Origin: Minisyncoccia bacterium
Lineage (GTDB): Bacteria > Patescibacteriota > Minisyncoccia > Phycocordibacterales > UBA918
Assembly: GCA_964229335.1 (NCBI GenBank)
Contig: CAXRCZ010000007.1
Coordinates: 32,001 to 96,000 of the forward strand
DNA length: 64,000 nt
Reading direction: 5' to 3'
Below the pieces are notes generated by a model. That model had not been told where the DNA came from, ran no database searches, and saw only the letters and a program-made list of their open reading frames with translations. Positions 1 to 63,015 of this stretch are shown here, in pieces. How positions within the stretch are numbered: position 1 is the stretch's first letter; the number at the start of each line of letters is the position of its first letter. Both the position numbers and the translations under genes were made by a program.

Positions 1-883
1 CGTCAGCTTGGATGCCTGACTCGACCAACTCGCGTACGTTTATACCGAGATTAACGAACGCAAACAAGCCGAGGATGGTTGGCAGAAACCAGGTTGCAAA
101 CACCCGTTCGATGCGCTCTGAAGTTGATTCTCCAGATTCATCAAACGGAGCCGCTACCCCAGCGACGACACCCGCCAAGGTCGGATGAATACCCGCCTTA
201 TAAAACAGATACCAGAGGAGTAGTGCCCCAATGAGGTAAATGCCTTTGTAGGGAGTTTTCGGTCCGAAGCCGAGCCAGAGCAGAACGACCGAAACCAGTA
301 TGCCGTACAGCAAAAAGGTCAGGTCGATCTGGTCGGTGTAGAACACCGCGATGACGAGAATGCCGAAAACATCATCCACCACCGCCAAGAGCAGCAGGAT
401 AGTTCGTTGCGTCTTGTCGACTTTCAACACCTCGGCGAAGAGAAGCGCAAACGCAATATCAGTCGCCATCGGAATGCCGAAGATAGTCGAGGCGTAGTCG
501 GGAGCGATCACCGCCGACAGAATTGCTGGCAAGCAGACGCCACCAGCAGCTGCGATGAACGGCACTGATGCACTCGACACACTCGGAAACTGACTGAGCT
601 CACGTCTGACTTCTGTCCCCACGACGAGGAAGAAGAACATCATGAGAAAGTCATTGACGAAAAAGTGCACATCCGGTTGACCCGATATAGTGACTGACCC
701 CATCGTCAGACCGAAATTCAGCACCCCATGAACAATGTCGTGGTACAAGTGCGACCAGCCGAGCACGACTACGCCGATGTTTGCCAGAATGAATCCTGCA
801 GGACCCCACGTAATCATCCACGGAAGGTGGTTGGTGAGCCACTGAATCGGCAGCGGAACATTTTCATTTATTTGAGCAGACAA
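1..883 (-). CDS. nhaA: Na+/H+ antiporter NhaA, 5' part (runs off the window edge)
   Basis: Mirror of 61834..62716; includes the PMATDIAFA and LAVVDD motifs. Confidence 0.88.
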   Translation of the reverse strand, partial: MSAQINENVPLPIQWLTNHLPWMITWGPAGFILANIGVVVLGWSHLYHDIVHGVLNFGLTMGSVTISGQPDVHFFVNDFLMMFFFLVVGTEVRRELSQFPSVSSASVPFIAAAGGVCLPAILSAVIAPDYASTIFGIPMATDIAFALLFAEVLKVDKTQRTILLLLAVVDDVFGILVIAVFYTDQIDLTFLLYGILVSVVLLWLGFGPKTPYKGIYLIGALLLWYLFYKAGIHPTLAGVVAGVAAPFDESGESTSERIERVFATWFLPTILGLFAFVNLGINVRELVESGIQAD

Positions 884-1001
884 TTAAGCCTCCTTTGTAG
901 ATAGTGTGTGAATGTGAAAGAACAGGCATCCGTCCGGATACTTCTTCATTCACATCCGGTGAAGGCGCTACAATAACACCTAAATTTAAGGCTGTACAGA
1001 T

Positions 1002-1025
1002 AGAGGCGACCAATTGGTCGCCTCT
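1002..1025. terminator. 24-bp perfect palindrome just downstream of the ABC transporter stop
   Basis: AGAGGCGACCAATTGGTCGCCTCT is its own reverse complement. No clear U tract. Confidence 0.55.
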
Positions 1026-1029
1026 CTAA

Positions 1030-2808
1030 CTACTCTTCATCGGTGAGAAATCCTCCGGCCTGATGCTCCCAGAGTCTTTGGTAGATACCACCCTGCTGTG
1101 AGAGTTCTTCATGCGTACCATCTTCAACAATCTGCCCTTCTTCGAGCACAATGATTCGATCCATTTTACGCAAAGTAGAAAGTCGGTGAGCTACTGCAAT
1201 TACAGTTTTTCCTTCCATCAATTCTTCTAATGCCTTTTGAATTGCCACTTCACTTTCACTATCGAGGGCTGAAGTCGCTTCATCAAGAACTAATATCGGT
1301 GCATCTTTTAACATAGCTCTAGCAATGGCAACACGCTGTTTTTGACCACCCGAAAGCTTCACTCCTCTCTCCCCAACCAATGTCTCATAGCCATTCGGCA
1401 AAGTAGTAATGAAGTTGTGAGCTTGAGCTTTTTTCGCAACTGCGATGATTTCTACCTCAGTAGCACCAGGCTTGCCATACGCAATGTTGTCTCTAATAGA
1501 GCGATGGAACAGAAGTGGCTCCTGTGGTACTACCGCAATATGCTCTCGGAGTGAATCTTGAGTCACTATAGCTATGTTATGACTGTCGATATTGATTGAA
1601 CCTGCGCTGACATCGTGCTGACGTAATAGGAGCGAAACAAAAGTCGTCTTTCCAGCTCCCGAATGCCCCACTAAACCTAGTCTCTGGCCCGCTGGTATCT
1701 TAAGATTAAAATCTTTAAAGACCGGCACGCCTTCATAATCAAACGAAACATAGTCCCATGAGATATCTGCCCTATCAATTTTAAGAGACCGGGCTCTTGG
1801 ATCATCTTCTATTTCGATTGGTAATAATGTTTGCTCCAAACCTTCTTGAATTTCTCCGTATAATCTTACAAATTGATTGATAGAGCCTCCGATAAAAGTA
1901 AGGGTACCAACAAGATTAAAAACCAGAGCTGAAACTAAGACAAAATCTCCGGTAGTAACATTACCGGCTTGCCAGTTCAATACTAAAACAAGCATCATGA
2001 GAAATATACCAACCGTGATGACAACCCCATTAGCAACAAGAATCCATTCACTAATACTCCACTGTTTCAAATCTGCACTTCTTACGTCGTCGGCATGAGC
2101 TGACACATCTTCTAGCTCACTTGTACTGCGAGTGTATTGTCGTGTGGCAGCAATATTAGTTAATAGGTCAACGGTATAACCTTTGAGCTTAGTCTTTTTC
2201 TCTGCCCAGGAGACTACGTGAGGTCTACGTATTCGAGCCAAATATACATTCAGTGGTACCAGAATCAACAGCATAACAGTGAAGACACTCCCGGCTATCA
2301 CGTGGGTTGTAAAAATCAAAAAACCAGAAAAAACAAAACTAAGAAGTGTTGGTACATGACGCCAAAGAATCTGGTCTGAAAGATCAGTAATCCCATCAGA
2401 GGCGTTTGAGACTTTACTCGAAACCGAACCTGCAAAACGATTGGCAAAATATGTGTGGCTATGTTGCACTACATGGCGGTATAAAACTCGGTAGGATCTG
2501 GCTTGTAACCTGGTAATCCAACGCATCCCGGTGAATCCACTCAAACGCCAAAACATTGACTCAAATCCGATTAAAACCGGCACTGCCATGACTAGCCAAA
2601 ATACCAATTGTTGTTGCTCGGAAGTTTCGGCTATAAGCGCATTGTCTACAATAAGTTTTAAAGTGTATGGCACAGCCAATCCCAACAGTTGAGCAATTAC
2701 AACCCAGGCCAGCGAAAGTAAGGCGATATATCGAAATGGCCTAAGGATGTATAAGCCATAGCTTAGTGGGGTTTTTGGAATGTCTCGTTGTTGCTTGATT
2801 TGAGCCAT
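1030..2808 (-). CDS. ABC transporter, fused permease and ATP-binding domain (MsbA/MdlB-like exporter)
   Basis: N-terminal transmembrane helices; Walker A GHSGAGKT, signature LSGGQKQR, Walker B ILVLDEATSALD, H-loop VAHRLST. Confidence 0.95.
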   Translation of the reverse strand: MAQIKQQRDIPKTPLSYGLYILRPFRYIALLSLAWVVIAQLLGLAVPYTLKLIVDNALIAETSEQQQLVFWLVMAVPVLIGFESMFWRLSGFTGMRWITRLQARSYRVLYRHVVQHSHTYFANRFAGSVSSKVSNASDGITDLSDQILWRHVPTLLSFVFSGFLIFTTHVIAGSVFTVMLLILVPLNVYLARIRRPHVVSWAEKKTKLKGYTVDLLTNIAATRQYTRSTSELEDVSAHADDVRSADLKQWSISEWILVANGVVITVGIFLMMLVLVLNWQAGNVTTGDFVLVSALVFNLVGTLTFIGGSINQFVRLYGEIQEGLEQTLLPIEIEDDPRARSLKIDRADISWDYVSFDYEGVPVFKDFNLKIPAGQRLGLVGHSGAGKTTFVSLLLRQHDVSAGSINIDSHNIAIVTQDSLREHIAVVPQEPLLFHRSIRDNIAYGKPGATEVEIIAVAKKAQAHNFITTLPNGYETLVGERGVKLSGGQKQRVAIARAMLKDAPILVLDEATSALDSESEVAIQKALEELMEGKTVIAVAHRLSTLRKMDRIIVLEEGQIVEDGTHEELSQQGGIYQRLWEHQAGGFLTDEE

Positions 2809-2863
2809 AATAATTTGATGATTTTAACATTATTACACGACATTTGATGCTAATTGATGTATC

Positions 2864-3766
2864 TTGATAAATATGAACCCAGAACAAGCGGCTATAAGAA
2901 ATCTAGATAGAAGAAAGCGAACTGATGATATACAAGAAGCAGCCGATAAACTATTGAGAAATTCGGAACATGTTCATCAGATACTCAATGAATTAGCATT
3001 TCAACCAGAAGATTTTTCTAACCTCTATGGCGCCGACAGTATCAAAGATGACCTTAGGTATGTAAGAAACCGTCATGAAGATTTCCGGGACAGTGATCGA
3101 GTAGCTGTTACAGAAGATTTAACACGCGGCGACATCAGGAAACTAGCTGAGCGAGTAGAATATGAAGTGATTCGAGGGATTAATGCCGGACACTGGTTTG
3201 AAGGTATGGGAGCACACAAGACGTCTGAGTATGACGATATCAAAAATGGCGTTGATATCGTTCTTGAAACACTAGAAGGAAACTCATATGGTCACCTTGG
3301 ACTAGGTGTTGATGTAACCTTCTCAAAAGATGTGCTTGCTAAATTTAGACGAATTAAAGATGAGATAGATGCCTACGACGGCAAGGACAATAGATTGGCA
3401 GTGGTTAAATACTTTTCTTCCGAAAACACGGGTGTTAGAGGTGAGCTGCACAGTATGGCTCGTGCAGTAGTGGCTGTTGATTTGCCAATGTTGCGTGACA
3501 TGACCAGACTGAAAGACGCTGATGCTCTACATGACCACATATCTAAGCACGTCACAATTTTAGAAATTGTAGAGCAGCTGACTACTTTCATCGAGTATGC
3601 CAACGAGAAAAATCCAGCTGCTGCAAAGCATCTTCAGCGTTCATTAGATTTCGTGAGGAGTATCGCGGATAAACTGGACTCTGAAAGAAAGGTTGAACAA
3701 TCAGAATATTTAAAAAATCGTCGTGCTGACGAGGCAATCGAAGAAGGTTTGGCTTTGTTCAGATAA
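2864..3766 (+). CDS. Hypothetical protein, possible PD-(D/E)XK nuclease-like fold
   Basis: 300-aa ORF with acidic motif E...DDIKNGVDIVL...LGVDVT. The fold assignment is inference. Confidence 0.75.
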   Translation: MINMNPEQAAIRNLDRRKRTDDIQEAADKLLRNSEHVHQILNELAFQPEDFSNLYGADSIKDDLRYVRNRHEDFRDSDRVAVTEDLTRGDIRKLAERVEYEVIRGINAGHWFEGMGAHKTSEYDDIKNGVDIVLETLEGNSYGHLGLGVDVTFSKDVLAKFRRIKDEIDAYDGKDNRLAVVKYFSSENTGVRGELHSMARAVVAVDLPMLRDMTRLKDADALHDHISKHVTILEIVEQLTTFIEYANEKNPAAAKHLQRSLDFVRSIADKLDSERKVEQSEYLKNRRADEAIEEGLALFR

Positions 3767-3791
3767 TAAGTATACTAATAGCCACCTATTT

Positions 3792-3864
3792 GTCCGGTTA
3801 GCTCAGCTGGTAGAGCGCTACATTGACATTGTAGAGGTCACAAGTTCAAGTCTTGTACCGGACA
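3792..3864 (+). tRNA. tRNA-Val(GAC)
   Basis: Acceptor stem GTCCGGT/ACCGGAC; anticodon arm CTACA-TTGACAT-TGTAG; T arm ACAAG-TTCAAGT-CTTGT. CCA not encoded. Confidence 0.96.
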
Positions 3865-3871
3865 CAAAATT

Positions 3872-4753
3872 TTAAATATTTTTAGTAGCTATTTTAGCCG
3901 CTGTAATTGCACCTTCTTTTGAATCACACACAAACAAGAATCCACCCTTATGACAAAATTGGGCCCCTTCAATTCCACTGACATTAATTAATTCTTGATT
4001 GCTGAGACCTGCCCAAGAAGAAGGAAATTTGACCCTGGTTTCAAATGATTCACCTCTTACAGGTACAGTGCTAGCCCTCCATTTTGTTGAATCATTAGGA
4101 GAAGGTGAGACCACCACTAAAGGCTCTTCGTATTCATTAAATAATCCTCTGCTGATCGATTGTGGTGAGACTATGATACTTTTATCAGTTGCGGCTATAT
4201 ACAATTCCTCAGCTTTCTTTTTTTCTTCTTCAATGTGTTCTCCATGCTTTATTATTCTTTCCACATAACACCGAGCAAAATCAACCGCTTGTAGAAATGC
4301 TTCATAATATTCAACGTCTGTTGCAATACCGATTGGGTGATACGATGACACGACTGCATACAACTCAGTTGGTTTTACTCCAATTTCGTTGACTTTATAC
4401 AACTCTAAACCGTTATCTCCAGCGTCAATTGGTTGCACCAATGTCTCTTCTATATGACTGGCGATAGACTCATCAACCAATTGTTGCGAATATTCTTTCC
4501 ATACCAAACCGAAAGCGGCATAAGGAATACTGTTAGGTCGAACTGGGCCATCTGTTTGATGGTGATCAAACCTATTTGATTGTGGATCATATACTCCACC
4601 TACATCCACTACAATGTCTGCACTAGTAATGATGGATTCTTCTCTGGTGCGAATAATTTCTATCTCTTCTTTGCCGTACACTAATTGGAGTGTTGCAATG
4701 GCAAACACTTCATCGCTGTGGAAGCTTCCGTTATGAGTTACTACAGTTTTCAT
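3872..4753 (-). CDS. MYG1 family (DHH superfamily) hydrolase/exonuclease
   Basis: THNGSFHSDE, VVDVGGVYD, RFDHHQ and FCHKGGF motifs. Start moved to MKTVVTH (the ORF extends to 4795). Confidence 0.9.
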   Translation of the reverse strand: MKTVVTHNGSFHSDEVFAIATLQLVYGKEEIEIIRTREESIITSADIVVDVGGVYDPQSNRFDHHQTDGPVRPNSIPYAAFGLVWKEYSQQLVDESIASHIEETLVQPIDAGDNGLELYKVNEIGVKPTELYAVVSSYHPIGIATDVEYYEAFLQAVDFARCYVERIIKHGEHIEEEKKKAEELYIAATDKSIIVSPQSISRGLFNEYEEPLVVVSPSPNDSTKWRASTVPVRGESFETRVKFPSSWAGLSNQELINVSGIEGAQFCHKGGFLFVCDSKEGAITAAKIATKNI

Positions 4754-4811
4754 TTGCATTTGACGATACCATAGTTTTGCCAAGCCAGTAAGCATTATAT
4801 ATAGTACTAAA

Positions 4812-5984
4812 ATGCGAATCCTTTCGATTGAGACATCATGTGACGAAACTGCTATTAGTTTGATAGAAGCAACTGGTGAGTTTCCGCACGCTACCTACGA
4901 AATACTAGGAAATTGCTTATGGAGCCAGGTGGATATTCACCGTGAATACGGTGGCGTGTTCCCTCGTCTGGCTAAACGAGAGCATGTTGCCACTATCGTC
5001 CCAATTCTAAAAAACACCCTAGAAGAAGCTGATGAGCTACACACCGATTCAATCGACATAGAAAGTACTAAAGAACAAGCGGTGAGGAAGATTCTGGAGC
5101 GTGAGCCTGGACTGGCTGATTCACTACTTGAATTTGCACGTAATCATTCACTTGTCGAAATAGACATTATTGCTGTCACCAATGGTCCTGGCTTGGAGCC
5201 TGCGTTGTGGGTGGGAGTGAACTTTGCTCGCGCACTGGCACTCTTGTGGAATATTCCGGTAGTTCCAACCAATCACATGGAAGGACACGTATTAGCTAGT
5301 GTGTACGATAGCGATCGTGATGACCAGCTCTCAGACATCACCTTCCCTGCTATCAGTCTGCTTATTTCTGGTGGACATACCGAGCTCATAGCCATGGATG
5401 ATTGGCAAAGCTACAAAAAAGTTGGCCAAACGAGAGACGATGCGGTTGGCGAAGCGTTTGATAAAGTCGCTCGTTTACTCGGACTTCCCTATCCCGGTGG
5501 ACCTGAAATTGGCAAACAAGCCAAGGTTGCCAGAGTAAACAACTTACCAGCTTTTGCTGACTTACCGAAGCCAATGTTGCAGTCTGGTGACTTGGATTTT
5601 TCGTTTTCAGGCTTAAAGACGGCCGTGCGCTATGCAGTGCAGGAGAAAGAATTGAGCGAGACTGACATACAAGCAATCGCTAGAGATTTTGAAGATGTGG
5701 TGACAGAAGTGCTCATAAAGAAAACTGCTGCCGCAAGTAAACAAACTCAAGCCAAAACTCTGATTGTTGGCGGTGGAGTGAGTGCCAATCAACACATCAA
5801 GCACGAATTTGAAAAATATTTCTTAGAGCATTTACCCGATGTCACTGTGTACTTTCCAGCGCCTTCCCTATCTACTGATAACAGTATAATGATTGCTTTA
5901 GCTGGCCACGCGAGAGCCGGCAGTGCGATTGCACCGGACGCATCGGATGTTATCCGCGCTGATGGAAATAAATCATTGGCGTAA
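4812..5984 (+). CDS. tsaD: tRNA N6-threonylcarbamoyltransferase TsaD
   Basis: LSIETSCDET, NHMEGH, LLISGGHT, TRDDAVGEAFDK and STDNSIMIA motifs. Confidence 0.96.
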   Translation: MRILSIETSCDETAISLIEATGEFPHATYEILGNCLWSQVDIHREYGGVFPRLAKREHVATIVPILKNTLEEADELHTDSIDIESTKEQAVRKILEREPGLADSLLEFARNHSLVEIDIIAVTNGPGLEPALWVGVNFARALALLWNIPVVPTNHMEGHVLASVYDSDRDDQLSDITFPAISLLISGGHTELIAMDDWQSYKKVGQTRDDAVGEAFDKVARLLGLPYPGGPEIGKQAKVARVNNLPAFADLPKPMLQSGDLDFSFSGLKTAVRYAVQEKELSETDIQAIARDFEDVVTEVLIKKTAAASKQTQAKTLIVGGGVSANQHIKHEFEKYFLEHLPDVTVYFPAPSLSTDNSIMIALAGHARAGSAIAPDASDVIRADGNKSLA

Positions 5985-6031
5985 TGAATAACTTCAATCT
6001 AGCTTCTTTTCATGCTACCATCGCTTAATAT

Positions 6032-8245
6032 ATGAGTGAAAACAAGCCTCAAATACCGGAGATATTTTTATCTCCTTACAATCCAGATGAACACGAAAGT
6101 GCGCTGTATGACGCTTGGGAAACATCTGGCTATTTTAATCCTGACACCTGCATCGAGAAAACTGTGTCTGATGAAAAAAAGGATCCTTTTTCTATTGTTC
6201 TCCCCCCACCAAATGTAACCGGGACGCTTCACATGGGGCACGCGGCTATGCTTGCCATCGAAGATATTCTTGTTCGATATAACCGCATGCAAGGACGACC
6301 AACTCTTTGGGTACCAGGCACCGACTCTGCAGCTCTGGCTACGCAGAGTAAGGTTGAAAGCATTATCTACAAAAAAGAAAAGAAGCGTCGAGATGAAATT
6401 GGACGCGAAGAACTTCTAAAACAAGTTGCTGCTTTTGCCGAAGAGAGTAAGGAAACTATTATCGACCAAACCAAGCGCATGGGCGCCAGCATGGATTGGA
6501 GTCGTTACGCTTACACCCTAGACGAAAAACGATACAACGCAGTTACTGAGGCTTTTATCCGAATGTACAACGATGGATTGATTTATCGCGGGGCCAGAAT
6601 AGTTAATTGGGATCCGGCCATGCACACGACAGTGTCAGATGATGAAGTGGCGTACGTGGAGCAAACTGATCCGTTCTACTATTTCAAGTATGGCCCTTTC
6701 ACTATCGGTACAGTTCGTCCAGAAACCAAATTTGGCGACAAATACGTGGTGATGCACCCGGATGACAAACGCTATTCACAATACAAACACAAACAAGAAA
6801 TTGAAGTGGAATGGATTAATGGACCAATTACCGCCACTATCATAAAAGATGAGGCTGCAGACCCTGAAATGGGTTCAGGTGTGATGACAATCACCCCGGC
6901 GCACTCTCTAGTCGATTTTGAAATTGCTGAGCGGCATAGTCTTGACTACGAACCAATCATTGATGAGCGAGGTTGTTTGTTAGATATTGCCGGAGACTTT
7001 GCTGGCATGCATATTAAGAAAGCTCGCCCTCTCTTGGTGGAGAAGATGCAAGAAAAAGGACTAGTTGAAAAAATTGATGAGCAGTATGTTCATAGCATTG
7101 CTACCAATGAACGTGGAGGTGGCGTGATTGAACCACAAATCAAAGAACAATGGTTTATTGATGTGAACAAGACGTTCACCATGGGTGAATCGAGTATTCC
7201 TGGTATCAACCAAGGTGATCAGGTATCACTCAAACAACTCATGCTGGCTGCAGTTGAGAACGGCGGAATCGATATCTTTCCAGATAGATTCAAAAAAATC
7301 TATTTCCACTGGATTCACAATCTGCGTGATTGGTGTATCTCACGGCAAATCTGGTATGGCCACCGGATTCCCGTTTGGTACAAGGGTGACGAGAAAACGG
7401 TATCAAAATCTTCCCCCGGCGAGGGCTGGACACAAGACCCAGATACGCTAGACACGTGGTTTTCATCGGGATTATGGACCTTCTCAACCTTAGGCTGGCC
7501 AGAACAAACCGAAGATTTGAAACGCTATCATCCCACCACTGTACTTGAGACCGGTTACGACATCATTTTCTTCTGGGTTGCCAGAATGGTATTGATGAGC
7601 ACGTATCTATTAGGAGAAGTACCATTTAGGAACGTATACTTGCACGGATTAGTCCGAGACGAAAAAGGGCAAAAGATGAGCAAGTCACTCGGAAATATCA
7701 TTAACCCAATTGAGATGATTGATAAATATGGCGCTGACGCCACTCGCCTATCACTCATCATTGGTGCTGCCCCAGGCAATGACATGCCACTTAATGAAGA
7801 CAAAGTTCGTGGTTATAAGAAATTTGCTAATAAAGTATGGAATATTAGTCGCTTTGTGCTGACCTCAATTGCTGATACCGACTGGGCACAATCTCCAAAC
7901 CTAAGTGAACGTGATAATGAAATTCTTACTGACTTACAAAACACGGTTGATGAAGTAGCCAACGATATCGAGTCATTCAACTTATACCTTGCAGCTGATA
8001 AAGCCTATCACTATGTCTGGCACGAATTAGCTGACAATATTCTTGAAGAATCAAAGCCGATACTTAATGGCGAGGATAATGAAGCTAAACGCGCTCGTCA
8101 GGAGGTACTCAAAGAATGTTTGACCAAATCACTCAAAATGCTCCACCCATTTATGCCGTATGTCACAGAGACAATCTGGCAAAATGCACCCGAAGAAATG
8201 AAGCAGAGAGAATTTCTGATGATAGAAAGCTGGCCGACTAACTAA
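6032..8245 (+). CDS. valS: Valine--tRNA ligase (short form, no C-terminal coiled-coil arm)
   Basis: PPPNVTGTLHMGH, DWCISRQIWYGHRIP, DTWFSS and KMSKS motifs. Confidence 0.96.
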   Translation: MSENKPQIPEIFLSPYNPDEHESALYDAWETSGYFNPDTCIEKTVSDEKKDPFSIVLPPPNVTGTLHMGHAAMLAIEDILVRYNRMQGRPTLWVPGTDSAALATQSKVESIIYKKEKKRRDEIGREELLKQVAAFAEESKETIIDQTKRMGASMDWSRYAYTLDEKRYNAVTEAFIRMYNDGLIYRGARIVNWDPAMHTTVSDDEVAYVEQTDPFYYFKYGPFTIGTVRPETKFGDKYVVMHPDDKRYSQYKHKQEIEVEWINGPITATIIKDEAADPEMGSGVMTITPAHSLVDFEIAERHSLDYEPIIDERGCLLDIAGDFAGMHIKKARPLLVEKMQEKGLVEKIDEQYVHSIATNERGGGVIEPQIKEQWFIDVNKTFTMGESSIPGINQGDQVSLKQLMLAAVENGGIDIFPDRFKKIYFHWIHNLRDWCISRQIWYGHRIPVWYKGDEKTVSKSSPGEGWTQDPDTLDTWFSSGLWTFSTLGWPEQTEDLKRYHPTTVLETGYDIIFFWVARMVLMSTYLLGEVPFRNVYLHGLVRDEKGQKMSKSLGNIINPIEMIDKYGADATRLSLIIGAAPGNDMPLNEDKVRGYKKFANKVWNISRFVLTSIADTDWAQSPNLSERDNEILTDLQNTVDEVANDIESFNLYLAADKAYHYVWHELADNILEESKPILNGEDNEAKRARQEVLKECLTKSLKMLHPFMPYVTETIWQNAPEEMKQREFLMIESWPTN

Positions 8246-8257
8246 GTAGAACCATAT

Positions 8258-8292
8258 AAACAGCACGGCGTCCAAATGGTGCCGTGCTGTTT
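8258..8292 (+). terminator. Hairpin terminator after valS
   Basis: AAACAGCACGGC...GCCGTGCTGTTT, 12-bp stem. Confidence 0.65.
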
Positions 8293-8309
8293 GTTACAAT
8301 AAACAAACA

Positions 8310-9005
8310 ATGGATCCTTCGTACGTTGCCATCGCGCTATTGGCTGGACTTGTCCCTGCTCTTTTCTGGCTATGGTTTTGGTTGCGTGAAGATAAAGAGC
8401 ATCCGGAACCATATTTATTGGTAGCACTAAGTTTTTTGGCAGGAATGCTAGTGGTACCAATTGCACTACCCTTGCAAAAATACGCTATTGATATATATGA
8501 CGGAAAAACAGTGGTGCTCGTCTGGGTCATACTGGAAGAACTTCTCAAATATGCCGCCGCTTTGATAGTCATATTATGGAACAAAGAAGTGGATGAACCA
8601 ATAGATATGGTCATTTACATGATAACCATCGCACTTGGCTTTGCAGCGCTTGAAAACGCCTTGTTCATCTTTAATCCGCTGATTAGCGGTGCGTACCTTG
8701 ACTCTGCCCTTACTGGTAGCTTCCGATTTGTCGGCGCTACCCTCTTACATGTGCTAGCTTCAGCTACTGTAGGTGTATTCTTAGCTTTTGCATATTACAA
8801 GAGTCGATGGACTCAGATGTTGTTTGGAATGGTTGGGTTATTCATTGCTATCGTATTGCATGCCTTATTTAACTTTTTTATAATGAATGCAAGCGGAGAA
8901 ACTATTTTAGGAGTTTTTCTCGTCGTGTGGATGGGAGTAATACTTCTCTTTTTCCTATTTGAAAAAATAAAACGCATCCGACGACCAGCCCGTCGATTAC
9001 GATAA
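8310..9005 (+). CDS. PrsW family intramembrane protease
   Basis: Multi-TM protein with DKEHPEP, EELLK, GFAALEN, LLH and LHALFN motifs. Confidence 0.9.
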   Translation: MDPSYVAIALLAGLVPALFWLWFWLREDKEHPEPYLLVALSFLAGMLVVPIALPLQKYAIDIYDGKTVVLVWVILEELLKYAAALIVILWNKEVDEPIDMVIYMITIALGFAALENALFIFNPLISGAYLDSALTGSFRFVGATLLHVLASATVGVFLAFAYYKSRWTQMLFGMVGLFIAIVLHALFNFFIMNASGETILGVFLVVWMGVILLFFLFEKIKRIRRPARRLR

Positions 9006-9011
9006 GTACCT

Positions 9012-9527: not shown

Positions 9528-9530
9528 CCA

Positions 9531-9787: not shown

Positions 9788-9852
9788 AATTAATTTTCCT
9801 AGAGTAGCACAAAGTCACTATAATCAACTACTCTTTTGCTATACTGGTAACT

Positions 9853-53186: not shown

Positions 53187-53189
53187 TGG

Positions 53190-53705: not shown

Positions 53706-53711
53706 AGGTAC

Positions 53712-54407
53712 TTATCGTAATCGACGGGCTGGTCGTCGGATGCGTTTTATTTTTTCAAATAGGAAAAAGAGAAGTATTACTCCCATCCACACGACGAGAA
53801 AAACTCCTAAAATAGTTTCTCCGCTTGCATTCATTATAAAAAAGTTAAATAAGGCATGCAATACGATAGCAATGAATAACCCAACCATTCCAAACAACAT
53901 CTGAGTCCATCGACTCTTGTAATATGCAAAAGCTAAGAATACACCTACAGTAGCTGAAGCTAGCACATGTAAGAGGGTAGCGCCGACAAATCGGAAGCTA
54001 CCAGTAAGGGCAGAGTCAAGGTACGCACCGCTAATCAGCGGATTAAAGATGAACAAGGCGTTTTCAAGCGCTGCAAAGCCAAGTGCGATGGTTATCATGT
54101 AAATGACCATATCTATTGGTTCATCCACTTCTTTGTTCCATAATATGACTATCAAAGCGGCGGCATATTTGAGAAGTTCTTCCAGTATGACCCAGACGAG
54201 CACCACTGTTTTTCCGTCATATATATCAATAGCGTATTTTTGCAAGGGTAGTGCAATTGGTACCACTAGCATTCCTGCCAAAAAACTTAGTGCTACCAAT
54301 AAATATGGTTCCGGATGCTCTTTATCTTCACGCAACCAAAACCATAGCCAGAAAAGAGCAGGGACAAGTCCAGCCAATAGCGCGATGGCAACGTACGAAG
54401 GATCCAT
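53712..54407 (-). CDS. PrsW family protease (mirror)
   Basis: Mirror of 8310..9005. Confidence 0.9.
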   Translation of the reverse strand: MDPSYVAIALLAGLVPALFWLWFWLREDKEHPEPYLLVALSFLAGMLVVPIALPLQKYAIDIYDGKTVVLVWVILEELLKYAAALIVILWNKEVDEPIDMVIYMITIALGFAALENALFIFNPLISGAYLDSALTGSFRFVGATLLHVLASATVGVFLAFAYYKSRWTQMLFGMVGLFIAIVLHALFNFFIMNASGETILGVFLVVWMGVILLFFLFEKIKRIRRPARRLR

Positions 54408-54471
54408 TGTTTGTTTATTGTAACAAACAGCACGGCACCATTTGGACGCCGTGCTGTTTATATGGTTCTAC

Positions 54472-56685
54472 TTAGTTAGTCGGCCAGCTTTCTATCATCA
54501 GAAATTCTCTCTGCTTCATTTCTTCGGGTGCATTTTGCCAGATTGTCTCTGTGACATACGGCATAAATGGGTGGAGCATTTTGAGTGATTTGGTCAAACA
54601 TTCTTTGAGTACCTCCTGACGAGCGCGTTTAGCTTCATTATCCTCGCCATTAAGTATCGGCTTTGATTCTTCAAGAATATTGTCAGCTAATTCGTGCCAG
54701 ACATAGTGATAGGCTTTATCAGCTGCAAGGTATAAGTTGAATGACTCGATATCGTTGGCTACTTCATCAACCGTGTTTTGTAAGTCAGTAAGAATTTCAT
54801 TATCACGTTCACTTAGGTTTGGAGATTGTGCCCAGTCGGTATCAGCAATTGAGGTCAGCACAAAGCGACTAATATTCCATACTTTATTAGCAAATTTCTT
54901 ATAACCACGAACTTTGTCTTCATTAAGTGGCATGTCATTGCCTGGGGCAGCACCAATGATGAGTGATAGGCGAGTGGCGTCAGCGCCATATTTATCAATC
55001 ATCTCAATTGGGTTAATGATATTTCCGAGTGACTTGCTCATCTTTTGCCCTTTTTCGTCTCGGACTAATCCGTGCAAGTATACGTTCCTAAATGGTACTT
55101 CTCCTAATAGATACGTGCTCATCAATACCATTCTGGCAACCCAGAAGAAAATGATGTCGTAACCGGTCTCAAGTACAGTGGTGGGATGATAGCGTTTCAA
55201 ATCTTCGGTTTGTTCTGGCCAGCCTAAGGTTGAGAAGGTCCATAATCCCGATGAAAACCACGTGTCTAGCGTATCTGGGTCTTGTGTCCAGCCCTCGCCG
55301 GGGGAAGATTTTGATACCGTTTTCTCGTCACCCTTGTACCAAACGGGAATCCGGTGGCCATACCAGATTTGCCGTGAGATACACCAATCACGCAGATTGT
55401 GAATCCAGTGGAAATAGATTTTTTTGAATCTATCTGGAAAGATATCGATTCCGCCGTTCTCAACTGCAGCCAGCATGAGTTGTTTGAGTGATACCTGATC
55501 ACCTTGGTTGATACCAGGAATACTCGATTCACCCATGGTGAACGTCTTGTTCACATCAATAAACCATTGTTCTTTGATTTGTGGTTCAATCACGCCACCT
55601 CCACGTTCATTGGTAGCAATGCTATGAACATACTGCTCATCAATTTTTTCAACTAGTCCTTTTTCTTGCATCTTCTCCACCAAGAGAGGGCGAGCTTTCT
55701 TAATATGCATGCCAGCAAAGTCTCCGGCAATATCTAACAAACAACCTCGCTCATCAATGATTGGTTCGTAGTCAAGACTATGCCGCTCAGCAATTTCAAA
55801 ATCGACTAGAGAGTGCGCCGGGGTGATTGTCATCACACCTGAACCCATTTCAGGGTCTGCAGCCTCATCTTTTATGATAGTGGCGGTAATTGGTCCATTA
55901 ATCCATTCCACTTCAATTTCTTGTTTGTGTTTGTATTGTGAATAGCGTTTGTCATCCGGGTGCATCACCACGTATTTGTCGCCAAATTTGGTTTCTGGAC
56001 GAACTGTACCGATAGTGAAAGGGCCATACTTGAAATAGTAGAACGGATCAGTTTGCTCCACGTACGCCACTTCATCATCTGACACTGTCGTGTGCATGGC
56101 CGGATCCCAATTAACTATTCTGGCCCCGCGATAAATCAATCCATCGTTGTACATTCGGATAAAAGCCTCAGTAACTGCGTTGTATCGTTTTTCGTCTAGG
56201 GTGTAAGCGTAACGACTCCAATCCATGCTGGCGCCCATGCGCTTGGTTTGGTCGATAATAGTTTCCTTACTCTCTTCGGCAAAAGCAGCAACTTGTTTTA
56301 GAAGTTCTTCGCGTCCAATTTCATCTCGACGCTTCTTTTCTTTTTTGTAGATAATGCTTTCAACCTTACTCTGCGTAGCCAGAGCTGCAGAGTCGGTGCC
56401 TGGTACCCAAAGAGTTGGTCGTCCTTGCATGCGGTTATATCGAACAAGAATATCTTCGATGGCAAGCATAGCCGCGTGCCCCATGTGAAGCGTCCCGGTT
56501 ACATTTGGTGGGGGGAGAACAATAGAAAAAGGATCCTTTTTTTCATCAGACACAGTTTTCTCGATGCAGGTGTCAGGATTAAAATAGCCAGATGTTTCCC
56601 AAGCGTCATACAGCGCACTTTCGTGTTCATCTGGATTGTAAGGAGATAAAAATATCTCCGGTATTTGAGGCTTGTTTTCACTCAT
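54472..56685 (-). CDS. valS: Valine--tRNA ligase (mirror)
   Basis: Mirror of 6032..8245. Confidence 0.96.
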   Translation of the reverse strand: MSENKPQIPEIFLSPYNPDEHESALYDAWETSGYFNPDTCIEKTVSDEKKDPFSIVLPPPNVTGTLHMGHAAMLAIEDILVRYNRMQGRPTLWVPGTDSAALATQSKVESIIYKKEKKRRDEIGREELLKQVAAFAEESKETIIDQTKRMGASMDWSRYAYTLDEKRYNAVTEAFIRMYNDGLIYRGARIVNWDPAMHTTVSDDEVAYVEQTDPFYYFKYGPFTIGTVRPETKFGDKYVVMHPDDKRYSQYKHKQEIEVEWINGPITATIIKDEAADPEMGSGVMTITPAHSLVDFEIAERHSLDYEPIIDERGCLLDIAGDFAGMHIKKARPLLVEKMQEKGLVEKIDEQYVHSIATNERGGGVIEPQIKEQWFIDVNKTFTMGESSIPGINQGDQVSLKQLMLAAVENGGIDIFPDRFKKIYFHWIHNLRDWCISRQIWYGHRIPVWYKGDEKTVSKSSPGEGWTQDPDTLDTWFSSGLWTFSTLGWPEQTEDLKRYHPTTVLETGYDIIFFWVARMVLMSTYLLGEVPFRNVYLHGLVRDEKGQKMSKSLGNIINPIEMIDKYGADATRLSLIIGAAPGNDMPLNEDKVRGYKKFANKVWNISRFVLTSIADTDWAQSPNLSERDNEILTDLQNTVDEVANDIESFNLYLAADKAYHYVWHELADNILEESKPILNGEDNEAKRARQEVLKECLTKSLKMLHPFMPYVTETIWQNAPEEMKQREFLMIESWPTN

Positions 56686-56732
56686 ATATTAAGCGATGGT
56701 AGCATGAAAAGAAGCTAGATTGAAGTTATTCA

Positions 56733-57905
56733 TTACGCCAATGATTTATTTCCATCAGCGCGGATAACATCCGATGCGTCCGGTGCAATCGCACTGCCGG
56801 CTCTCGCGTGGCCAGCTAAAGCAATCATTATACTGTTATCAGTAGATAGGGAAGGCGCTGGAAAGTACACAGTGACATCGGGTAAATGCTCTAAGAAATA
56901 TTTTTCAAATTCGTGCTTGATGTGTTGATTGGCACTCACTCCACCGCCAACAATCAGAGTTTTGGCTTGAGTTTGTTTACTTGCGGCAGCAGTTTTCTTT
57001 ATGAGCACTTCTGTCACCACATCTTCAAAATCTCTAGCGATTGCTTGTATGTCAGTCTCGCTCAATTCTTTCTCCTGCACTGCATAGCGCACGGCCGTCT
57101 TTAAGCCTGAAAACGAAAAATCCAAGTCACCAGACTGCAACATTGGCTTCGGTAAGTCAGCAAAAGCTGGTAAGTTGTTTACTCTGGCAACCTTGGCTTG
57201 TTTGCCAATTTCAGGTCCACCGGGATAGGGAAGTCCGAGTAAACGAGCGACTTTATCAAACGCTTCGCCAACCGCATCGTCTCTCGTTTGGCCAACTTTT
57301 TTGTAGCTTTGCCAATCATCCATGGCTATGAGCTCGGTATGTCCACCAGAAATAAGCAGACTGATAGCAGGGAAGGTGATGTCTGAGAGCTGGTCATCAC
57401 GATCGCTATCGTACACACTAGCTAATACGTGTCCTTCCATGTGATTGGTTGGAACTACCGGAATATTCCACAAGAGTGCCAGTGCGCGAGCAAAGTTCAC
57501 TCCCACCCACAACGCAGGCTCCAAGCCAGGACCATTGGTGACAGCAATAATGTCTATTTCGACAAGTGAATGATTACGTGCAAATTCAAGTAGTGAATCA
57601 GCCAGTCCAGGCTCACGCTCCAGAATCTTCCTCACCGCTTGTTCTTTAGTACTTTCTATGTCGATTGAATCGGTGTGTAGCTCATCAGCTTCTTCTAGGG
57701 TGTTTTTTAGAATTGGGACGATAGTGGCAACATGCTCTCGTTTAGCCAGACGAGGGAACACGCCACCGTATTCACGGTGAATATCCACCTGGCTCCATAA
57801 GCAATTTCCTAGTATTTCGTAGGTAGCGTGCGGAAACTCACCAGTTGCTTCTATCAAACTAATAGCAGTTTCGTCACATGATGTCTCAATCGAAAGGATT
57901 CGCAT
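56733..57905 (-). CDS. tsaD: TsaD (mirror)
   Basis: Mirror of 4812..5984. Confidence 0.96.
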   Translation of the reverse strand: MRILSIETSCDETAISLIEATGEFPHATYEILGNCLWSQVDIHREYGGVFPRLAKREHVATIVPILKNTLEEADELHTDSIDIESTKEQAVRKILEREPGLADSLLEFARNHSLVEIDIIAVTNGPGLEPALWVGVNFARALALLWNIPVVPTNHMEGHVLASVYDSDRDDQLSDITFPAISLLISGGHTELIAMDDWQSYKKVGQTRDDAVGEAFDKVARLLGLPYPGGPEIGKQAKVARVNNLPAFADLPKPMLQSGDLDFSFSGLKTAVRYAVQEKELSETDIQAIARDFEDVVTEVLIKKTAAASKQTQAKTLIVGGGVSANQHIKHEFEKYFLEHLPDVTVYFPAPSLSTDNSIMIALAGHARAGSAIAPDASDVIRADGNKSLA

Positions 57906-57963
57906 TTTAGTACTATATATAATGCTTACTGGCTTGGCAAAACTATGGTATCGTCAAATGCAA

Positions 57964-58845
57964 ATGAAAACTGTAGTAACTCATAACGGAAGCTTCCACA
58001 GCGATGAAGTGTTTGCCATTGCAACACTCCAATTAGTGTACGGCAAAGAAGAGATAGAAATTATTCGCACCAGAGAAGAATCCATCATTACTAGTGCAGA
58101 CATTGTAGTGGATGTAGGTGGAGTATATGATCCACAATCAAATAGGTTTGATCACCATCAAACAGATGGCCCAGTTCGACCTAACAGTATTCCTTATGCC
58201 GCTTTCGGTTTGGTATGGAAAGAATATTCGCAACAATTGGTTGATGAGTCTATCGCCAGTCATATAGAAGAGACATTGGTGCAACCAATTGACGCTGGAG
58301 ATAACGGTTTAGAGTTGTATAAAGTCAACGAAATTGGAGTAAAACCAACTGAGTTGTATGCAGTCGTGTCATCGTATCACCCAATCGGTATTGCAACAGA
58401 CGTTGAATATTATGAAGCATTTCTACAAGCGGTTGATTTTGCTCGGTGTTATGTGGAAAGAATAATAAAGCATGGAGAACACATTGAAGAAGAAAAAAAG
58501 AAAGCTGAGGAATTGTATATAGCCGCAACTGATAAAAGTATCATAGTCTCACCACAATCGATCAGCAGAGGATTATTTAATGAATACGAAGAGCCTTTAG
58601 TGGTGGTCTCACCTTCTCCTAATGATTCAACAAAATGGAGGGCTAGCACTGTACCTGTAAGAGGTGAATCATTTGAAACCAGGGTCAAATTTCCTTCTTC
58701 TTGGGCAGGTCTCAGCAATCAAGAATTAATTAATGTCAGTGGAATTGAAGGGGCCCAATTTTGTCATAAGGGTGGATTCTTGTTTGTGTGTGATTCAAAA
58801 GAAGGTGCAATTACAGCGGCTAAAATAGCTACTAAAAATATTTAA
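57964..58845 (+). CDS. MYG1 family protein (mirror)
   Basis: Mirror of 3872..4753. Confidence 0.9.
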   Translation: MKTVVTHNGSFHSDEVFAIATLQLVYGKEEIEIIRTREESIITSADIVVDVGGVYDPQSNRFDHHQTDGPVRPNSIPYAAFGLVWKEYSQQLVDESIASHIEETLVQPIDAGDNGLELYKVNEIGVKPTELYAVVSSYHPIGIATDVEYYEAFLQAVDFARCYVERIIKHGEHIEEEKKKAEELYIAATDKSIIVSPQSISRGLFNEYEEPLVVVSPSPNDSTKWRASTVPVRGESFETRVKFPSSWAGLSNQELINVSGIEGAQFCHKGGFLFVCDSKEGAITAAKIATKNI

Positions 58846-58852
58846 AATTTTG

Positions 58853-58925
58853 TGTCCGGTACAAGACTTGAACTTGTGACCTCTACAATGTCAATGTAGC
58901 GCTCTACCAGCTGAGCTAACCGGAC
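58853..58925 (-). tRNA. tRNA-Val(GAC) (mirror)
   Basis: Mirror of 3792..3864. Confidence 0.96.
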
Positions 58926-58950
58926 AAATAGGTGGCTATTAGTATACTTA

Positions 58951-59853
58951 TTATCTGAACAAAGCCAAACCTTCTTCGATTGCCTCGTCAGCACGACGAT
59001 TTTTTAAATATTCTGATTGTTCAACCTTTCTTTCAGAGTCCAGTTTATCCGCGATACTCCTCACGAAATCTAATGAACGCTGAAGATGCTTTGCAGCAGC
59101 TGGATTTTTCTCGTTGGCATACTCGATGAAAGTAGTCAGCTGCTCTACAATTTCTAAAATTGTGACGTGCTTAGATATGTGGTCATGTAGAGCATCAGCG
59201 TCTTTCAGTCTGGTCATGTCACGCAACATTGGCAAATCAACAGCCACTACTGCACGAGCCATACTGTGCAGCTCACCTCTAACACCCGTGTTTTCGGAAG
59301 AAAAGTATTTAACCACTGCCAATCTATTGTCCTTGCCGTCGTAGGCATCTATCTCATCTTTAATTCGTCTAAATTTAGCAAGCACATCTTTTGAGAAGGT
59401 TACATCAACACCTAGTCCAAGGTGACCATATGAGTTTCCTTCTAGTGTTTCAAGAACGATATCAACGCCATTTTTGATATCGTCATACTCAGACGTCTTG
59501 TGTGCTCCCATACCTTCAAACCAGTGTCCGGCATTAATCCCTCGAATCACTTCATATTCTACTCGCTCAGCTAGTTTCCTGATGTCGCCGCGTGTTAAAT
59601 CTTCTGTAACAGCTACTCGATCACTGTCCCGGAAATCTTCATGACGGTTTCTTACATACCTAAGGTCATCTTTGATACTGTCGGCGCCATAGAGGTTAGA
59701 AAAATCTTCTGGTTGAAATGCTAATTCATTGAGTATCTGATGAACATGTTCCGAATTTCTCAATAGTTTATCGGCTGCTTCTTGTATATCATCAGTTCGC
59801 TTTCTTCTATCTAGATTTCTTATAGCCGCTTGTTCTGGGTTCATATTTATCAA
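58951..59853 (-). CDS. Hypothetical protein, possible nuclease-like fold (mirror)
   Basis: Mirror of 2864..3766. Confidence 0.75.
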   Translation of the reverse strand: MINMNPEQAAIRNLDRRKRTDDIQEAADKLLRNSEHVHQILNELAFQPEDFSNLYGADSIKDDLRYVRNRHEDFRDSDRVAVTEDLTRGDIRKLAERVEYEVIRGINAGHWFEGMGAHKTSEYDDIKNGVDIVLETLEGNSYGHLGLGVDVTFSKDVLAKFRRIKDEIDAYDGKDNRLAVVKYFSSENTGVRGELHSMARAVVAVDLPMLRDMTRLKDADALHDHISKHVTILEIVEQLTTFIEYANEKNPAAAKHLQRSLDFVRSIADKLDSERKVEQSEYLKNRRADEAIEEGLALFR

Positions 59854-59908
59854 GATACATCAATTAGCATCAAATGTCGTGTAATAATGTTAAAATCATC
59901 AAATTATT

Positions 59909-61687
59909 ATGGCTCAAATCAAGCAACAACGAGACATTCCAAAAACCCCACTAAGCTATGGCTTATACATCCTTAGGCCATTTCGATATATCGCCTTACT
60001 TTCGCTGGCCTGGGTTGTAATTGCTCAACTGTTGGGATTGGCTGTGCCATACACTTTAAAACTTATTGTAGACAATGCGCTTATAGCCGAAACTTCCGAG
60101 CAACAACAATTGGTATTTTGGCTAGTCATGGCAGTGCCGGTTTTAATCGGATTTGAGTCAATGTTTTGGCGTTTGAGTGGATTCACCGGGATGCGTTGGA
60201 TTACCAGGTTACAAGCCAGATCCTACCGAGTTTTATACCGCCATGTAGTGCAACATAGCCACACATATTTTGCCAATCGTTTTGCAGGTTCGGTTTCGAG
60301 TAAAGTCTCAAACGCCTCTGATGGGATTACTGATCTTTCAGACCAGATTCTTTGGCGTCATGTACCAACACTTCTTAGTTTTGTTTTTTCTGGTTTTTTG
60401 ATTTTTACAACCCACGTGATAGCCGGGAGTGTCTTCACTGTTATGCTGTTGATTCTGGTACCACTGAATGTATATTTGGCTCGAATACGTAGACCTCACG
60501 TAGTCTCCTGGGCAGAGAAAAAGACTAAGCTCAAAGGTTATACCGTTGACCTATTAACTAATATTGCTGCCACACGACAATACACTCGCAGTACAAGTGA
60601 GCTAGAAGATGTGTCAGCTCATGCCGACGACGTAAGAAGTGCAGATTTGAAACAGTGGAGTATTAGTGAATGGATTCTTGTTGCTAATGGGGTTGTCATC
60701 ACGGTTGGTATATTTCTCATGATGCTTGTTTTAGTATTGAACTGGCAAGCCGGTAATGTTACTACCGGAGATTTTGTCTTAGTTTCAGCTCTGGTTTTTA
60801 ATCTTGTTGGTACCCTTACTTTTATCGGAGGCTCTATCAATCAATTTGTAAGATTATACGGAGAAATTCAAGAAGGTTTGGAGCAAACATTATTACCAAT
60901 CGAAATAGAAGATGATCCAAGAGCCCGGTCTCTTAAAATTGATAGGGCAGATATCTCATGGGACTATGTTTCGTTTGATTATGAAGGCGTGCCGGTCTTT
61001 AAAGATTTTAATCTTAAGATACCAGCGGGCCAGAGACTAGGTTTAGTGGGGCATTCGGGAGCTGGAAAGACGACTTTTGTTTCGCTCCTATTACGTCAGC
61101 ACGATGTCAGCGCAGGTTCAATCAATATCGACAGTCATAACATAGCTATAGTGACTCAAGATTCACTCCGAGAGCATATTGCGGTAGTACCACAGGAGCC
61201 ACTTCTGTTCCATCGCTCTATTAGAGACAACATTGCGTATGGCAAGCCTGGTGCTACTGAGGTAGAAATCATCGCAGTTGCGAAAAAAGCTCAAGCTCAC
61301 AACTTCATTACTACTTTGCCGAATGGCTATGAGACATTGGTTGGGGAGAGAGGAGTGAAGCTTTCGGGTGGTCAAAAACAGCGTGTTGCCATTGCTAGAG
61401 CTATGTTAAAAGATGCACCGATATTAGTTCTTGATGAAGCGACTTCAGCCCTCGATAGTGAAAGTGAAGTGGCAATTCAAAAGGCATTAGAAGAATTGAT
61501 GGAAGGAAAAACTGTAATTGCAGTAGCTCACCGACTTTCTACTTTGCGTAAAATGGATCGAATCATTGTGCTCGAAGAAGGGCAGATTGTTGAAGATGGT
61601 ACGCATGAAGAACTCTCACAGCAGGGTGGTATCTACCAAAGACTCTGGGAGCATCAGGCCGGAGGATTTCTCACCGATGAAGAGTAG
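59909..61687 (+). CDS. ABC transporter permease/ATP-binding protein (mirror)
   Basis: Mirror of 1030..2808. Confidence 0.95.
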   Translation: MAQIKQQRDIPKTPLSYGLYILRPFRYIALLSLAWVVIAQLLGLAVPYTLKLIVDNALIAETSEQQQLVFWLVMAVPVLIGFESMFWRLSGFTGMRWITRLQARSYRVLYRHVVQHSHTYFANRFAGSVSSKVSNASDGITDLSDQILWRHVPTLLSFVFSGFLIFTTHVIAGSVFTVMLLILVPLNVYLARIRRPHVVSWAEKKTKLKGYTVDLLTNIAATRQYTRSTSELEDVSAHADDVRSADLKQWSISEWILVANGVVITVGIFLMMLVLVLNWQAGNVTTGDFVLVSALVFNLVGTLTFIGGSINQFVRLYGEIQEGLEQTLLPIEIEDDPRARSLKIDRADISWDYVSFDYEGVPVFKDFNLKIPAGQRLGLVGHSGAGKTTFVSLLLRQHDVSAGSINIDSHNIAIVTQDSLREHIAVVPQEPLLFHRSIRDNIAYGKPGATEVEIIAVAKKAQAHNFITTLPNGYETLVGERGVKLSGGQKQRVAIARAMLKDAPILVLDEATSALDSESEVAIQKALEELMEGKTVIAVAHRLSTLRKMDRIIVLEEGQIVEDGTHEELSQQGGIYQRLWEHQAGGFLTDEE

Positions 61688-61833
61688 TTAGAGAGGCGAC
61701 CAATTGGTCGCCTCTATCTGTACAGCCTTAAATTTAGGTGTTATTGTAGCGCCTTCACCGGATGTGAATGAAGAAGTATCCGGACGGATGCCTGTTCTTT
61801 CACATTCACACACTATCTACAAAGGAGGCTTAA

Positions 61834-63015
61834 TTGTCTGCTCAAATAAATGAAAATGTTCCGCTGCCGATTCAGTGGCTCACCAACCACCTTCCGTGGA
61901 TGATTACGTGGGGTCCTGCAGGATTCATTCTGGCAAACATCGGCGTAGTCGTGCTCGGCTGGTCGCACTTGTACCACGACATTGTTCATGGGGTGCTGAA
62001 TTTCGGTCTGACGATGGGGTCAGTCACTATATCGGGTCAACCGGATGTGCACTTTTTCGTCAATGACTTTCTCATGATGTTCTTCTTCCTCGTCGTGGGG
62101 ACAGAAGTCAGACGTGAGCTCAGTCAGTTTCCGAGTGTGTCGAGTGCATCAGTGCCGTTCATCGCAGCTGCTGGTGGCGTCTGCTTGCCAGCAATTCTGT
62201 CGGCGGTGATCGCTCCCGACTACGCCTCGACTATCTTCGGCATTCCGATGGCGACTGATATTGCGTTTGCGCTTCTCTTCGCCGAGGTGTTGAAAGTCGA
62301 CAAGACGCAACGAACTATCCTGCTGCTCTTGGCGGTGGTGGATGATGTTTTCGGCATTCTCGTCATCGCGGTGTTCTACACCGACCAGATCGACCTGACC
62401 TTTTTGCTGTACGGCATACTGGTTTCGGTCGTTCTGCTCTGGCTCGGCTTCGGACCGAAAACTCCCTACAAAGGCATTTACCTCATTGGGGCACTACTCC
62501 TCTGGTATCTGTTTTATAAGGCGGGTATTCATCCGACCTTGGCGGGTGTCGTCGCTGGGGTAGCGGCTCCGTTTGATGAATCTGGAGAATCAACTTCAGA
62601 GCGCATCGAACGGGTGTTTGCAACCTGGTTTCTGCCAACCATCCTCGGCTTGTTTGCGTTCGTTAATCTCGGTATAAACGTACGCGAGTTGGTCGAGTCA
62701 GGCATCCAAGCTGACGTGGCCAGCGGTGTTGCAATCGGTCTTTTTGTCGGCAAGATTGCAGGCGTGGCTGGTGCACTCTGGCTCATCCAACGTCGCAACC
62801 CAGACGCAATCCCGTTCGGCAAACTGGCTATGGCCAGACTTGGAGCTTTGGCTGGGATTGGACTAACAGTCGCTCTGTTCATCAACAATCTGGCTTTCAA
62901 CGATGAAAAATTGATTGCCAGTGCCAAGGTGGGTATTTTGACTGGGAGTTTCCTAGCAGTGCTAGCAGCCTGGGTCTTGACGATTGTTATCAATAGGCAA
63001 GAAGCGAAAGTGTGA
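61834..63015 (+). CDS. nhaA: Na+/H+ antiporter NhaA (complete copy)
   Basis: VNDFLMMFFFLVVG.E, PMATDIAFA, LAVVDD, GIHPTLAGV, VGK and LAGIGLT motifs; AAGGAGG before a TTG start. Confidence 0.92.
   Translation: MSAQINENVPLPIQWLTNHLPWMITWGPAGFILANIGVVVLGWSHLYHDIVHGVLNFGLTMGSVTISGQPDVHFFVNDFLMMFFFLVVGTEVRRELSQFPSVSSASVPFIAAAGGVCLPAILSAVIAPDYASTIFGIPMATDIAFALLFAEVLKVDKTQRTILLLLAVVDDVFGILVIAVFYTDQIDLTFLLYGILVSVVLLWLGFGPKTPYKGIYLIGALLLWYLFYKAGIHPTLAGVVAGVAAPFDESGESTSERIERVFATWFLPTILGLFAFVNLGINVRELVESGIQADVASGVAIGLFVGKIAGVAGALWLIQRRNPDAIPFGKLAMARLGALAGIGLTVALFINNLAFNDEKLIASAKVGILTGSFLAVLAAWVLTIVINRQEAKV

Follow-up and report, generated by a model that had tools for sequence, protein, structure and literature searches.

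Does the chromosome of this bacterium end in a hairpin, or did its assembly fold back on itself? The question is raised by a 64,000-nucleotide stretch of a Minisyncoccia bacterium (Patescibacteriota), positions 32,001 to 96,000 of the forward strand of contig CAXRCZ010000007.1 in assembly GCA_964229335.1, which we call the window and number from its first letter. A preliminary description had read positions 1-62716 as an exact palindrome and had offered a hairpin telomere or an artefact as its origin. We confirmed the observation itself and found that the feature is very likely not genomic; the 63-kb mirror is most probably a de Bruijn assembly artefact that turned at a short native palindrome.

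The assembly (G000) comprises 13 contigs (C1-C13; 740,809 bp), and the window lies within C7. We used G054, a single-scaffold congener of 951,832 bp, as the reference for tiling. Sequencing runs were examined as k-mer contigs: X1, a marine metagenome and possibly the source of the assembly, held 99% of the sampled words, while X2-X4, from the same study, each held part of them.

Results

The mirror takes in an entire contig

Positions 31359-62716 of the window were found to be the exact reverse complement of 1-31358, with 0 mismatches, a spacer of 0 and the axis at 31358|31359, which bears out the palindrome reported earlier. The actual structure is larger than the window, since the whole of C7 (126,716 bp) is a single perfect palindrome with arms of 63,358 bp, as a fold-back artefact predicts. 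C7 is the sole mirrored contig of G000, and the other perfect arms do not exceed 21 bp. The terminal 82 bp at both ends of C7 are identical to the 3' end of C5 and absent from all other contigs. The duplicated arm makes up 8.6% of G000, an assembly rated 97.95% complete and 7.51% contaminated, and it doubles ten tRNA genes in C7 together with rnpB and dozens of proteins. The parts of the window on which the argument turns are as follows.

1..31358, minus strand: mirror copy of the arm, with 0 mismatches to 31359-62716, single-copy depth and one copy in congeners
31359..64000, plus strand: what we take as the real single-copy chromosomal arm, collinear with 567-656 kb of G054 and reaching the C7 end, then C5 via the 82-bp overlap
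31339..31378, no strand: the short native palindromic repeat that holds the axis, built of three GTACGTAC units with 4-nt spacers between them

The first of these, 1..31358, would be an artefactual duplicate except for its last ~15-20 bases, which appear to be native and to form the left half of the short palindrome.

The axis belongs to a dispersed repeat family

The structured motif that had been noted at the axis is real (its DNA fold has -18.2 kcal/mol), but it is a dispersed repeat and not a unique end site. G000 has the GTACGTAC-N4 unit pair at 7 places, the axis and 6 others.

C12:29813-29852: sister copy with perfect 20-bp arms and unique flanks, inside the contig
C1:52130-52165: sister copy, 35/36 nt identical to the axis, inside the contig
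C4:72111, C11:16194, C12:7842 and C13:33670: further sister copies

The C1 copy was also recovered with unique flanks in runs X1 and X3. The unique sequence of G000 holds 28 loop-less palindromes with arms of at least 12 bp, against 0, 0 and 0 in three shuffles. Because near-identical copies and many palindromes lie elsewhere in G000, the axis is one copy in an ordinary repeat family dispersed over this genome. The GTACGTAC-N4 pattern is present in 4 of 101 genus genomes, G000 counted, and two congeners (G073 and G016) carry contig-internal versions with perfect arms of 19 and 20 bp (7 of the loci examined).

In run X1, a 75-nt contig lies on 31344-31418 with 0 differences and ends 15 bases beyond the centre. 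We presume that the run-contig collection was built at k=31, and a k=31 graph turns on a palindrome where this contig stops. The native arms at the axis are probably about 20 bp each, and 15 bases left of the centre were seen in the run contigs.

Intergenic palindromes are dense in G000 as a whole: perfect stems of 15-22 bp number 65, and their length is sharply capped near 22 bp. Several families were distinguished, namely GTACGTAC-N4, AATCACCGC..TTAA and AT-only units. A match resembling a Y1 transposase (IS200/REP-associated type) was located at C10:10593-10814, among the strong hairpins of C10:9642-10369.

The arm is single-copy in the likely source run

Depth on the arm in X1 was 9.27 (355-bp contig) and 10.2 (6,620-bp contig), and the axis piece had 7.37. 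Two X1 records elsewhere in the genome served for comparison. One, of 8,781 bp and depth 11, has loose ends that match the flanks of C5:36119-36157 and was hence assigned to C5. The other, of 19,630 bp and depth 10.3, lies on 31342-31377 with one difference and was taken as the C1 copy, because the same piece in X3 has loose ends equal to the flanks of that copy; what X3 shows at the axis is this C1 copy. The arm is single-copy in X1, since the depth across the collapsed arm (9.3-10.2) equals that of the two records (10.3 and 11), as expected of an artefact. A real duplication is therefore excluded on depth, but a fold-back artefact and a hairpin end would each agree with the result.

Two places at which the arm might leave the mirror were tried and rejected. 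The first, an exit at 31423 from a longer native inverted repeat, was discarded because the branch there pairs by depth with a co-occurring relative (14.2 going out and ~14 coming in, the latter by arithmetic from bin means). This relative, present in X1 and X2, shares 31389-31423 and then continues into unique sequence upstream. An exit at 31748-31774, suggested by a 3,674-bp X1 record of depth 12.2, was discarded because the stretch is a repeat common to many congeners and the start of the record is absent from G000; depth in the supposed arms was not doubled either. That record begins on the repeat 31719-31774 and runs on into sequence not found in G000. The first 38 nt of the arm, searched against JGI metagenome contigs, gave 0 matches, and no independent assembly of the species was found there.

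Relatives continue past the axis

We found matches in G054 for 418 of the 583 G000 proteins, at a median identity of 61%. With one C7 arm used, the 13 contigs tile G054 once, in the order C1, C13, C11, C6, C7, C5, C8, C4, C2, C3, C10, C12, C9. C4 maps across the end and start of G054, and the circularity of G054 rests on this mapping, as its own two ends share no overlap and the scaffold closes with 100 N. At the position of the axis, C6 ends at 564 kb of G054, tRNA-Gln(UUG) lies at 566.9 kb and the arm genes follow from 577 kb, with no N-run between. The preliminary description had held that unique sequence upstream of tRNA-Gln in related genomes would argue against a hairpin end, and such sequence is indeed present in G054 and in the congener loci described below.

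The genes at the 3' end of C6 are prfB-ftsE-ftsX-pyrG-cupin. A survey with pyrG gave a match in 106 congeners, from which the 29 best-scoring loci were examined. A same-strand tRNA-Gln(UUG) follows pyrG by 73-1,402 nt in 22 of these 29 best loci (one of them, L106, with a divergent tRNA call at the contig end); in the remaining 7 it is inverted (1), the contig ends too early (4) or none lies within 1.5 kb (2). In 11 further congeners with long contigs, pyrG and tRNA-Gln were neighbours in 11/11 (one inverted), and the arm genes stood on the same contig in 8/11; for the other 3 the contig or the retrieved stretch ended before them.

Of the 23 congener loci with a tRNA-Gln 5' word, 21 have a promoter-like motif 20-73 nt upstream of it, at a chance expectation of 1.7% per 90-nt window. 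No such motif lies between the axis and tRNA-Gln. C6 terminates 9 nt past its copy of the motif and the axis sits 37 nt before the tRNA 5' word, so the stretch missing between C6 and the axis probably amounts to tens of bases. The gene order of congeners points to the 3' end of C6 as the true left neighbour of the arm. What lies beyond the turn is unique sequence in the congeners and in the co-occurring relative; for G000 itself, no contig crossing the turn was present in the run contigs. Across the assembly, 3 of 25 contig ends (two junctions) had a stem of at least 7 bp, against 2.2% of random windows, a weak enrichment of hairpins at contig ends.

Two observations were made in passing. A block of ~30 kb at C4:128-158 kb has no collinear counterpart in G054, at the point where the G054 scaffold ends in N. 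With the pyrG query used (E<=1e-100), no match was found in 21 of 128 genus genomes, several of which are rated 97-99% complete.

A short palindrome with a coverage hole suffices to fold a toy graph

A mechanism consistent with these results can be proposed. The chromosome would hold a single copy of the arm and, just upstream of tRNA-Gln, a native palindrome of perhaps ~40 bp. The assembler likely lost the true exit to C6 in a small coverage gap and then walked back on the opposite strand, and the mirror may have been carried from small-k rounds into the final contig. We modeled the turn in a toy doubled de Bruijn graph of 6 kb around the internal palindrome of C12, using error-free 150-nt reads at 10x. 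With a 20-nt hole placed 40-60 nt away from the centre, 20/20 cases at k 21, 31 and 39 produced a mirror of the whole unitig that the genome does not contain, as against 0/20 when the hole was left out. Together with such a hole, a native palindrome of the kind present at the turn is therefore sufficient for an inverted loop at k 21-39. The toy graph speaks to sufficiency only, and survival of the mirror in a final contig would need either small-k carry-over or fold-back reads. Assembler looping at a native palindrome had been raised as an alternative in the preliminary description, and depth, synteny, the dispersed motif and the toy graph all support it.

The axis lies mid-replichore in a genome with no recognized telomere resolvase

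Further checks proposed with the hairpin idea included a search for a resolvase, a search for a second folded axis (none was found) and the cumulative GC skew. The dnaA gene is in C1, with clusters resembling DnaA boxes on either side. In G054, cumulative G-C is lowest at dnaA and highest near 840 kb. On the ordered map of G000, it rises from C13 through C11, C6, the axis, C7, C5 and C8, unbroken from C11 onward, peaks early in the reversed C4 and then falls. The axis is ~162 kb from dnaA on this 677-kb map, which places it mid-replichore with the G-rich strand leading away from it, and the skew maximum is ~200 kb beyond. We based the replication polarity on G054 because the G000 skew near dnaA is unclear. 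A reversed polarity around dnaA, which the G000 skew had first suggested, was rejected as the polarity of G054 is normal and the ordered G000 map has one rise and one fall.

The telomere resolvase family PF16684 gave 0 matches in G000 at E<=10 and none in the 128 genus genomes searched (G000 and 127 congeners); the positive control, Synechococcus, was matched. The only PF00589 protein in G000 is a 317-aa Xer-like protein that has a counterpart at the same place in G054. A circular gene map without PF16684 was thus found, an outcome that had been named beforehand as contrary to a hairpin end.

Weighing the explanations

Several points count against an assembly error as the origin of the mirror. 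Chief among them, no X1 contig leaves the palindrome toward C6 or any other sequence, which makes the exit toward C6 an inferred one, and a true hairpin would look identical in these contigs. The runs offer no independent read evidence, as X1 is possibly the assembly's own source and X2-X4, which belong to the same study, lack G000's own sequence across the axis. C6 ends with no overlap to the axis, and its last 45 nt contain no stem. The sequences had already been seen when the promoter-like motif was defined. The G000 skew minimum falls in C13, ~55 kb from dnaA, and the skew near dnaA switches uncleanly. The toy graph gave 0/20 mirrors at k 41 and 55, and its hole was placed by hand. Finally, the assembler and the library are not on record.

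The error may instead have arisen before assembly, if the same native hairpin self-primed during end repair, polymerase chain reaction or whole-genome amplification and the assembler followed the chimeric reads. This too would be an artefact, on a chromosome still continuous with C6, and it differs only in where the error arose; we regard it as unlikely. The fold energy of the axis is in keeping with it, junction-spanning reads would explain the survival at large k that the toy graph lacked, and synteny, depth and skew fit equally well. However, X1 depth is flat along the arm (the 6,620-bp contig at 10.2) and G000 has only 13 contigs; flat depth and few contigs are unlike heavily amplified DNA. 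In addition, 16 other loop-less palindromes with arms of at least 16 bp remained unfolded.

It is very improbable that the axis is a covalently closed hairpin end, at which the chromosome was cut and sealed by an unrecognized resolvase and reads ran round the hairpin. The exact intergenic axis, the single-copy depth and the absence of an exit contig in X1 agree with such an end, and synteny alone is not decisive, as a circle opened at one site keeps its gene order. Hairpin replicons, as treated in the relevant part of PMC3558466, replicate from an internal origin toward their ends and require a protelomerase. Here, PF16684 is absent from G000 and from its 127 congeners, and the lone PF00589 protein is Xer-like and occupies a conserved place in G054. 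A cut at a symmetric site should yield a second folded end, whereas C7 alone is mirrored and C6 stops before the palindrome. The target site is not confined to ends, since the 35/36-nt copy in C1 and the perfect 40-bp copy in C12 stand uncut inside contigs. The distance from dnaA to the axis is 162 kb, and both the G-rich strand and 64% of the genes lead away from the axis (32 of the 50 arm ORFs of at least 120 aa, binomial p 0.065), in line with the two-thirds estimated at first. A cut would also put the sole tRNA-Gln(UUG) and its likely promoter, which lies on C6, on opposite sides, in a genome whose called ORFs use the codon CAA 4,520 times. Together with the continuation of congeners past the axis, these findings tell against the hairpin telomere first proposed. 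One would have to suppose a linear chromosome of the candidate phyla radiation type, opened mid-replichore at a dispersed palindrome, sealed by an enzyme unrelated to known resolvases and having the C6 tip as its other end, which we consider hardly credible.

That the living chromosome truly carries a head-to-head duplication of 63 kb or more has next to no probability and is largely refuted: the contig reads so, but ~2x depth would be expected and equal depth was found, both C7 ends lead to the single C5 with no second exit in other contigs, 0 mismatches occur over 63,358 bp, and long palindromes that lack a spacer are unstable in bacteria.

Gene content of the arm and the tRNA-Gln leader

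Every gene that had been listed as doubled (valS, lepA, tsaD, typA, murJ and rnpB) was recovered in the arm, valS, lepA, tsaD and typA above their NCBIfam cut-offs and murJ by way of Pfam.

31390..31535, plus strand: structured tRNA-Gln leader, starting with a 21-nt copy of the tRNA 5' end (31390-31410) detected by self-BLAST; fold z -3.8
31536..31609, plus strand: tRNA-Gln(UUG) by ARAGORN and Rfam, with its mirror at 31108-31181 and otherwise the only one in G000
31802..32281, plus strand: NUDIX hydrolase (PF00293), the first gene of the arm
35961..37751, plus strand: typA (TIGR01394 above cut-off)
42913..43305, plus strand: rnpB, the RNase P RNA (RF00010, 73.2 bits, E 7.9e-23, below Rfam gathering), with its mirror at 19412-19804
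45909..47585, plus strand: murJ (PF03023 passes; TIGR01695 below cut-off)
47647..49431, plus strand: lepA (TIGR01393 above cut-off)
54472..56685, minus strand: valS (TIGR00422 above cut-off)
56733..57905, minus strand: tsaD (TIGR03723 above cut-off)

The same arrangement, a 5'-end copy and then a variable, hairpin-rich insert of ~100-150 nt, precedes both Gln tRNAs of G000, the second at C5:36119-36157. Like leaders stand before tRNA-Gln in eight congener loci (L008, L089, L095, L099, L100, L102, L103 and L104), and other congeners are without them. These leaders are possibly scars of elements that integrated at the tRNA 5' half. The NUDIX gene and the next cassette are flanked by copies of the tRNA-Gln 3' end, at 31592-31607, 32294-32309 and 32558-32587. 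In a co-occurring relative, 31607 is joined to 32314 and the NUDIX cassette is missing.

Discussion

Taken together, the results favour an ordinary circular chromosome of ~677 kb. The species-representative assembly carries 63,358 duplicated bases, which likely account for most of its 7.51% contamination score. Once reads have borne out the link, C6 should be joined to a single C7 arm, which would bring G000 down to ~677 kb. Palindromes of 30-45 bp abound in genomes of this genus, and low-coverage assemblies of them may be prone to a like error. Were the hairpin end real, it would mean a linear chromosome in a group for which a literature search of titles found no such report. The parts of PMC9723686 and PMC13155455 consulted hold nothing on such a case, and those of PMC13155455 make no mention of Patescibacteria.

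Comparison with known systems

REP-like (repetitive extragenic palindromic) and other small extragenic palindromic repeats are short, intergenic, multi-copy and hairpin-forming. The GTACGTAC-N4 family has the same traits, but within the genus it is found in only those 4 of 101 genomes. The hairpin telomeres of TelA, TelN/TelK and ResT, so far as the relevant part of PMC3558466 describes them, resemble the C7 axis in their perfect palindromic junction and would give the same mirror in an assembly. They differ in that C7 comes with neither a resolvase nor a second end, and in that its motif is dispersed, has internal copies and lies mid-replichore. Other parallels come from assembly. Contigs with a large duplicated region are described as rare in the pertinent part of the CheckV paper (PMC8116208), where they are treated as artefacts and detected by a k-mer frequency >1; that work concerns viral contigs with concatenated copies, whereas C7 has an inverted copy in a bacterial metagenome-assembled genome. 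According to the sections of Rahman and Medvedev (2022; PMC9528984) that bear on this, low-coverage unitigs can spell sequence not in the genome (unsafe unitigs), and palindromes are covered in full by both SPAdes and MEGAHIT, the latter of which may also join k-mers from different values of k. Their doubled graph runs through the palindromic centre, as ours does. Those sections deal with real long palindromes and repeat-driven misjoins; the step from a short palindrome and a lost exit to a 127-kb mirror is our own extension, for which the toy graph gives support.

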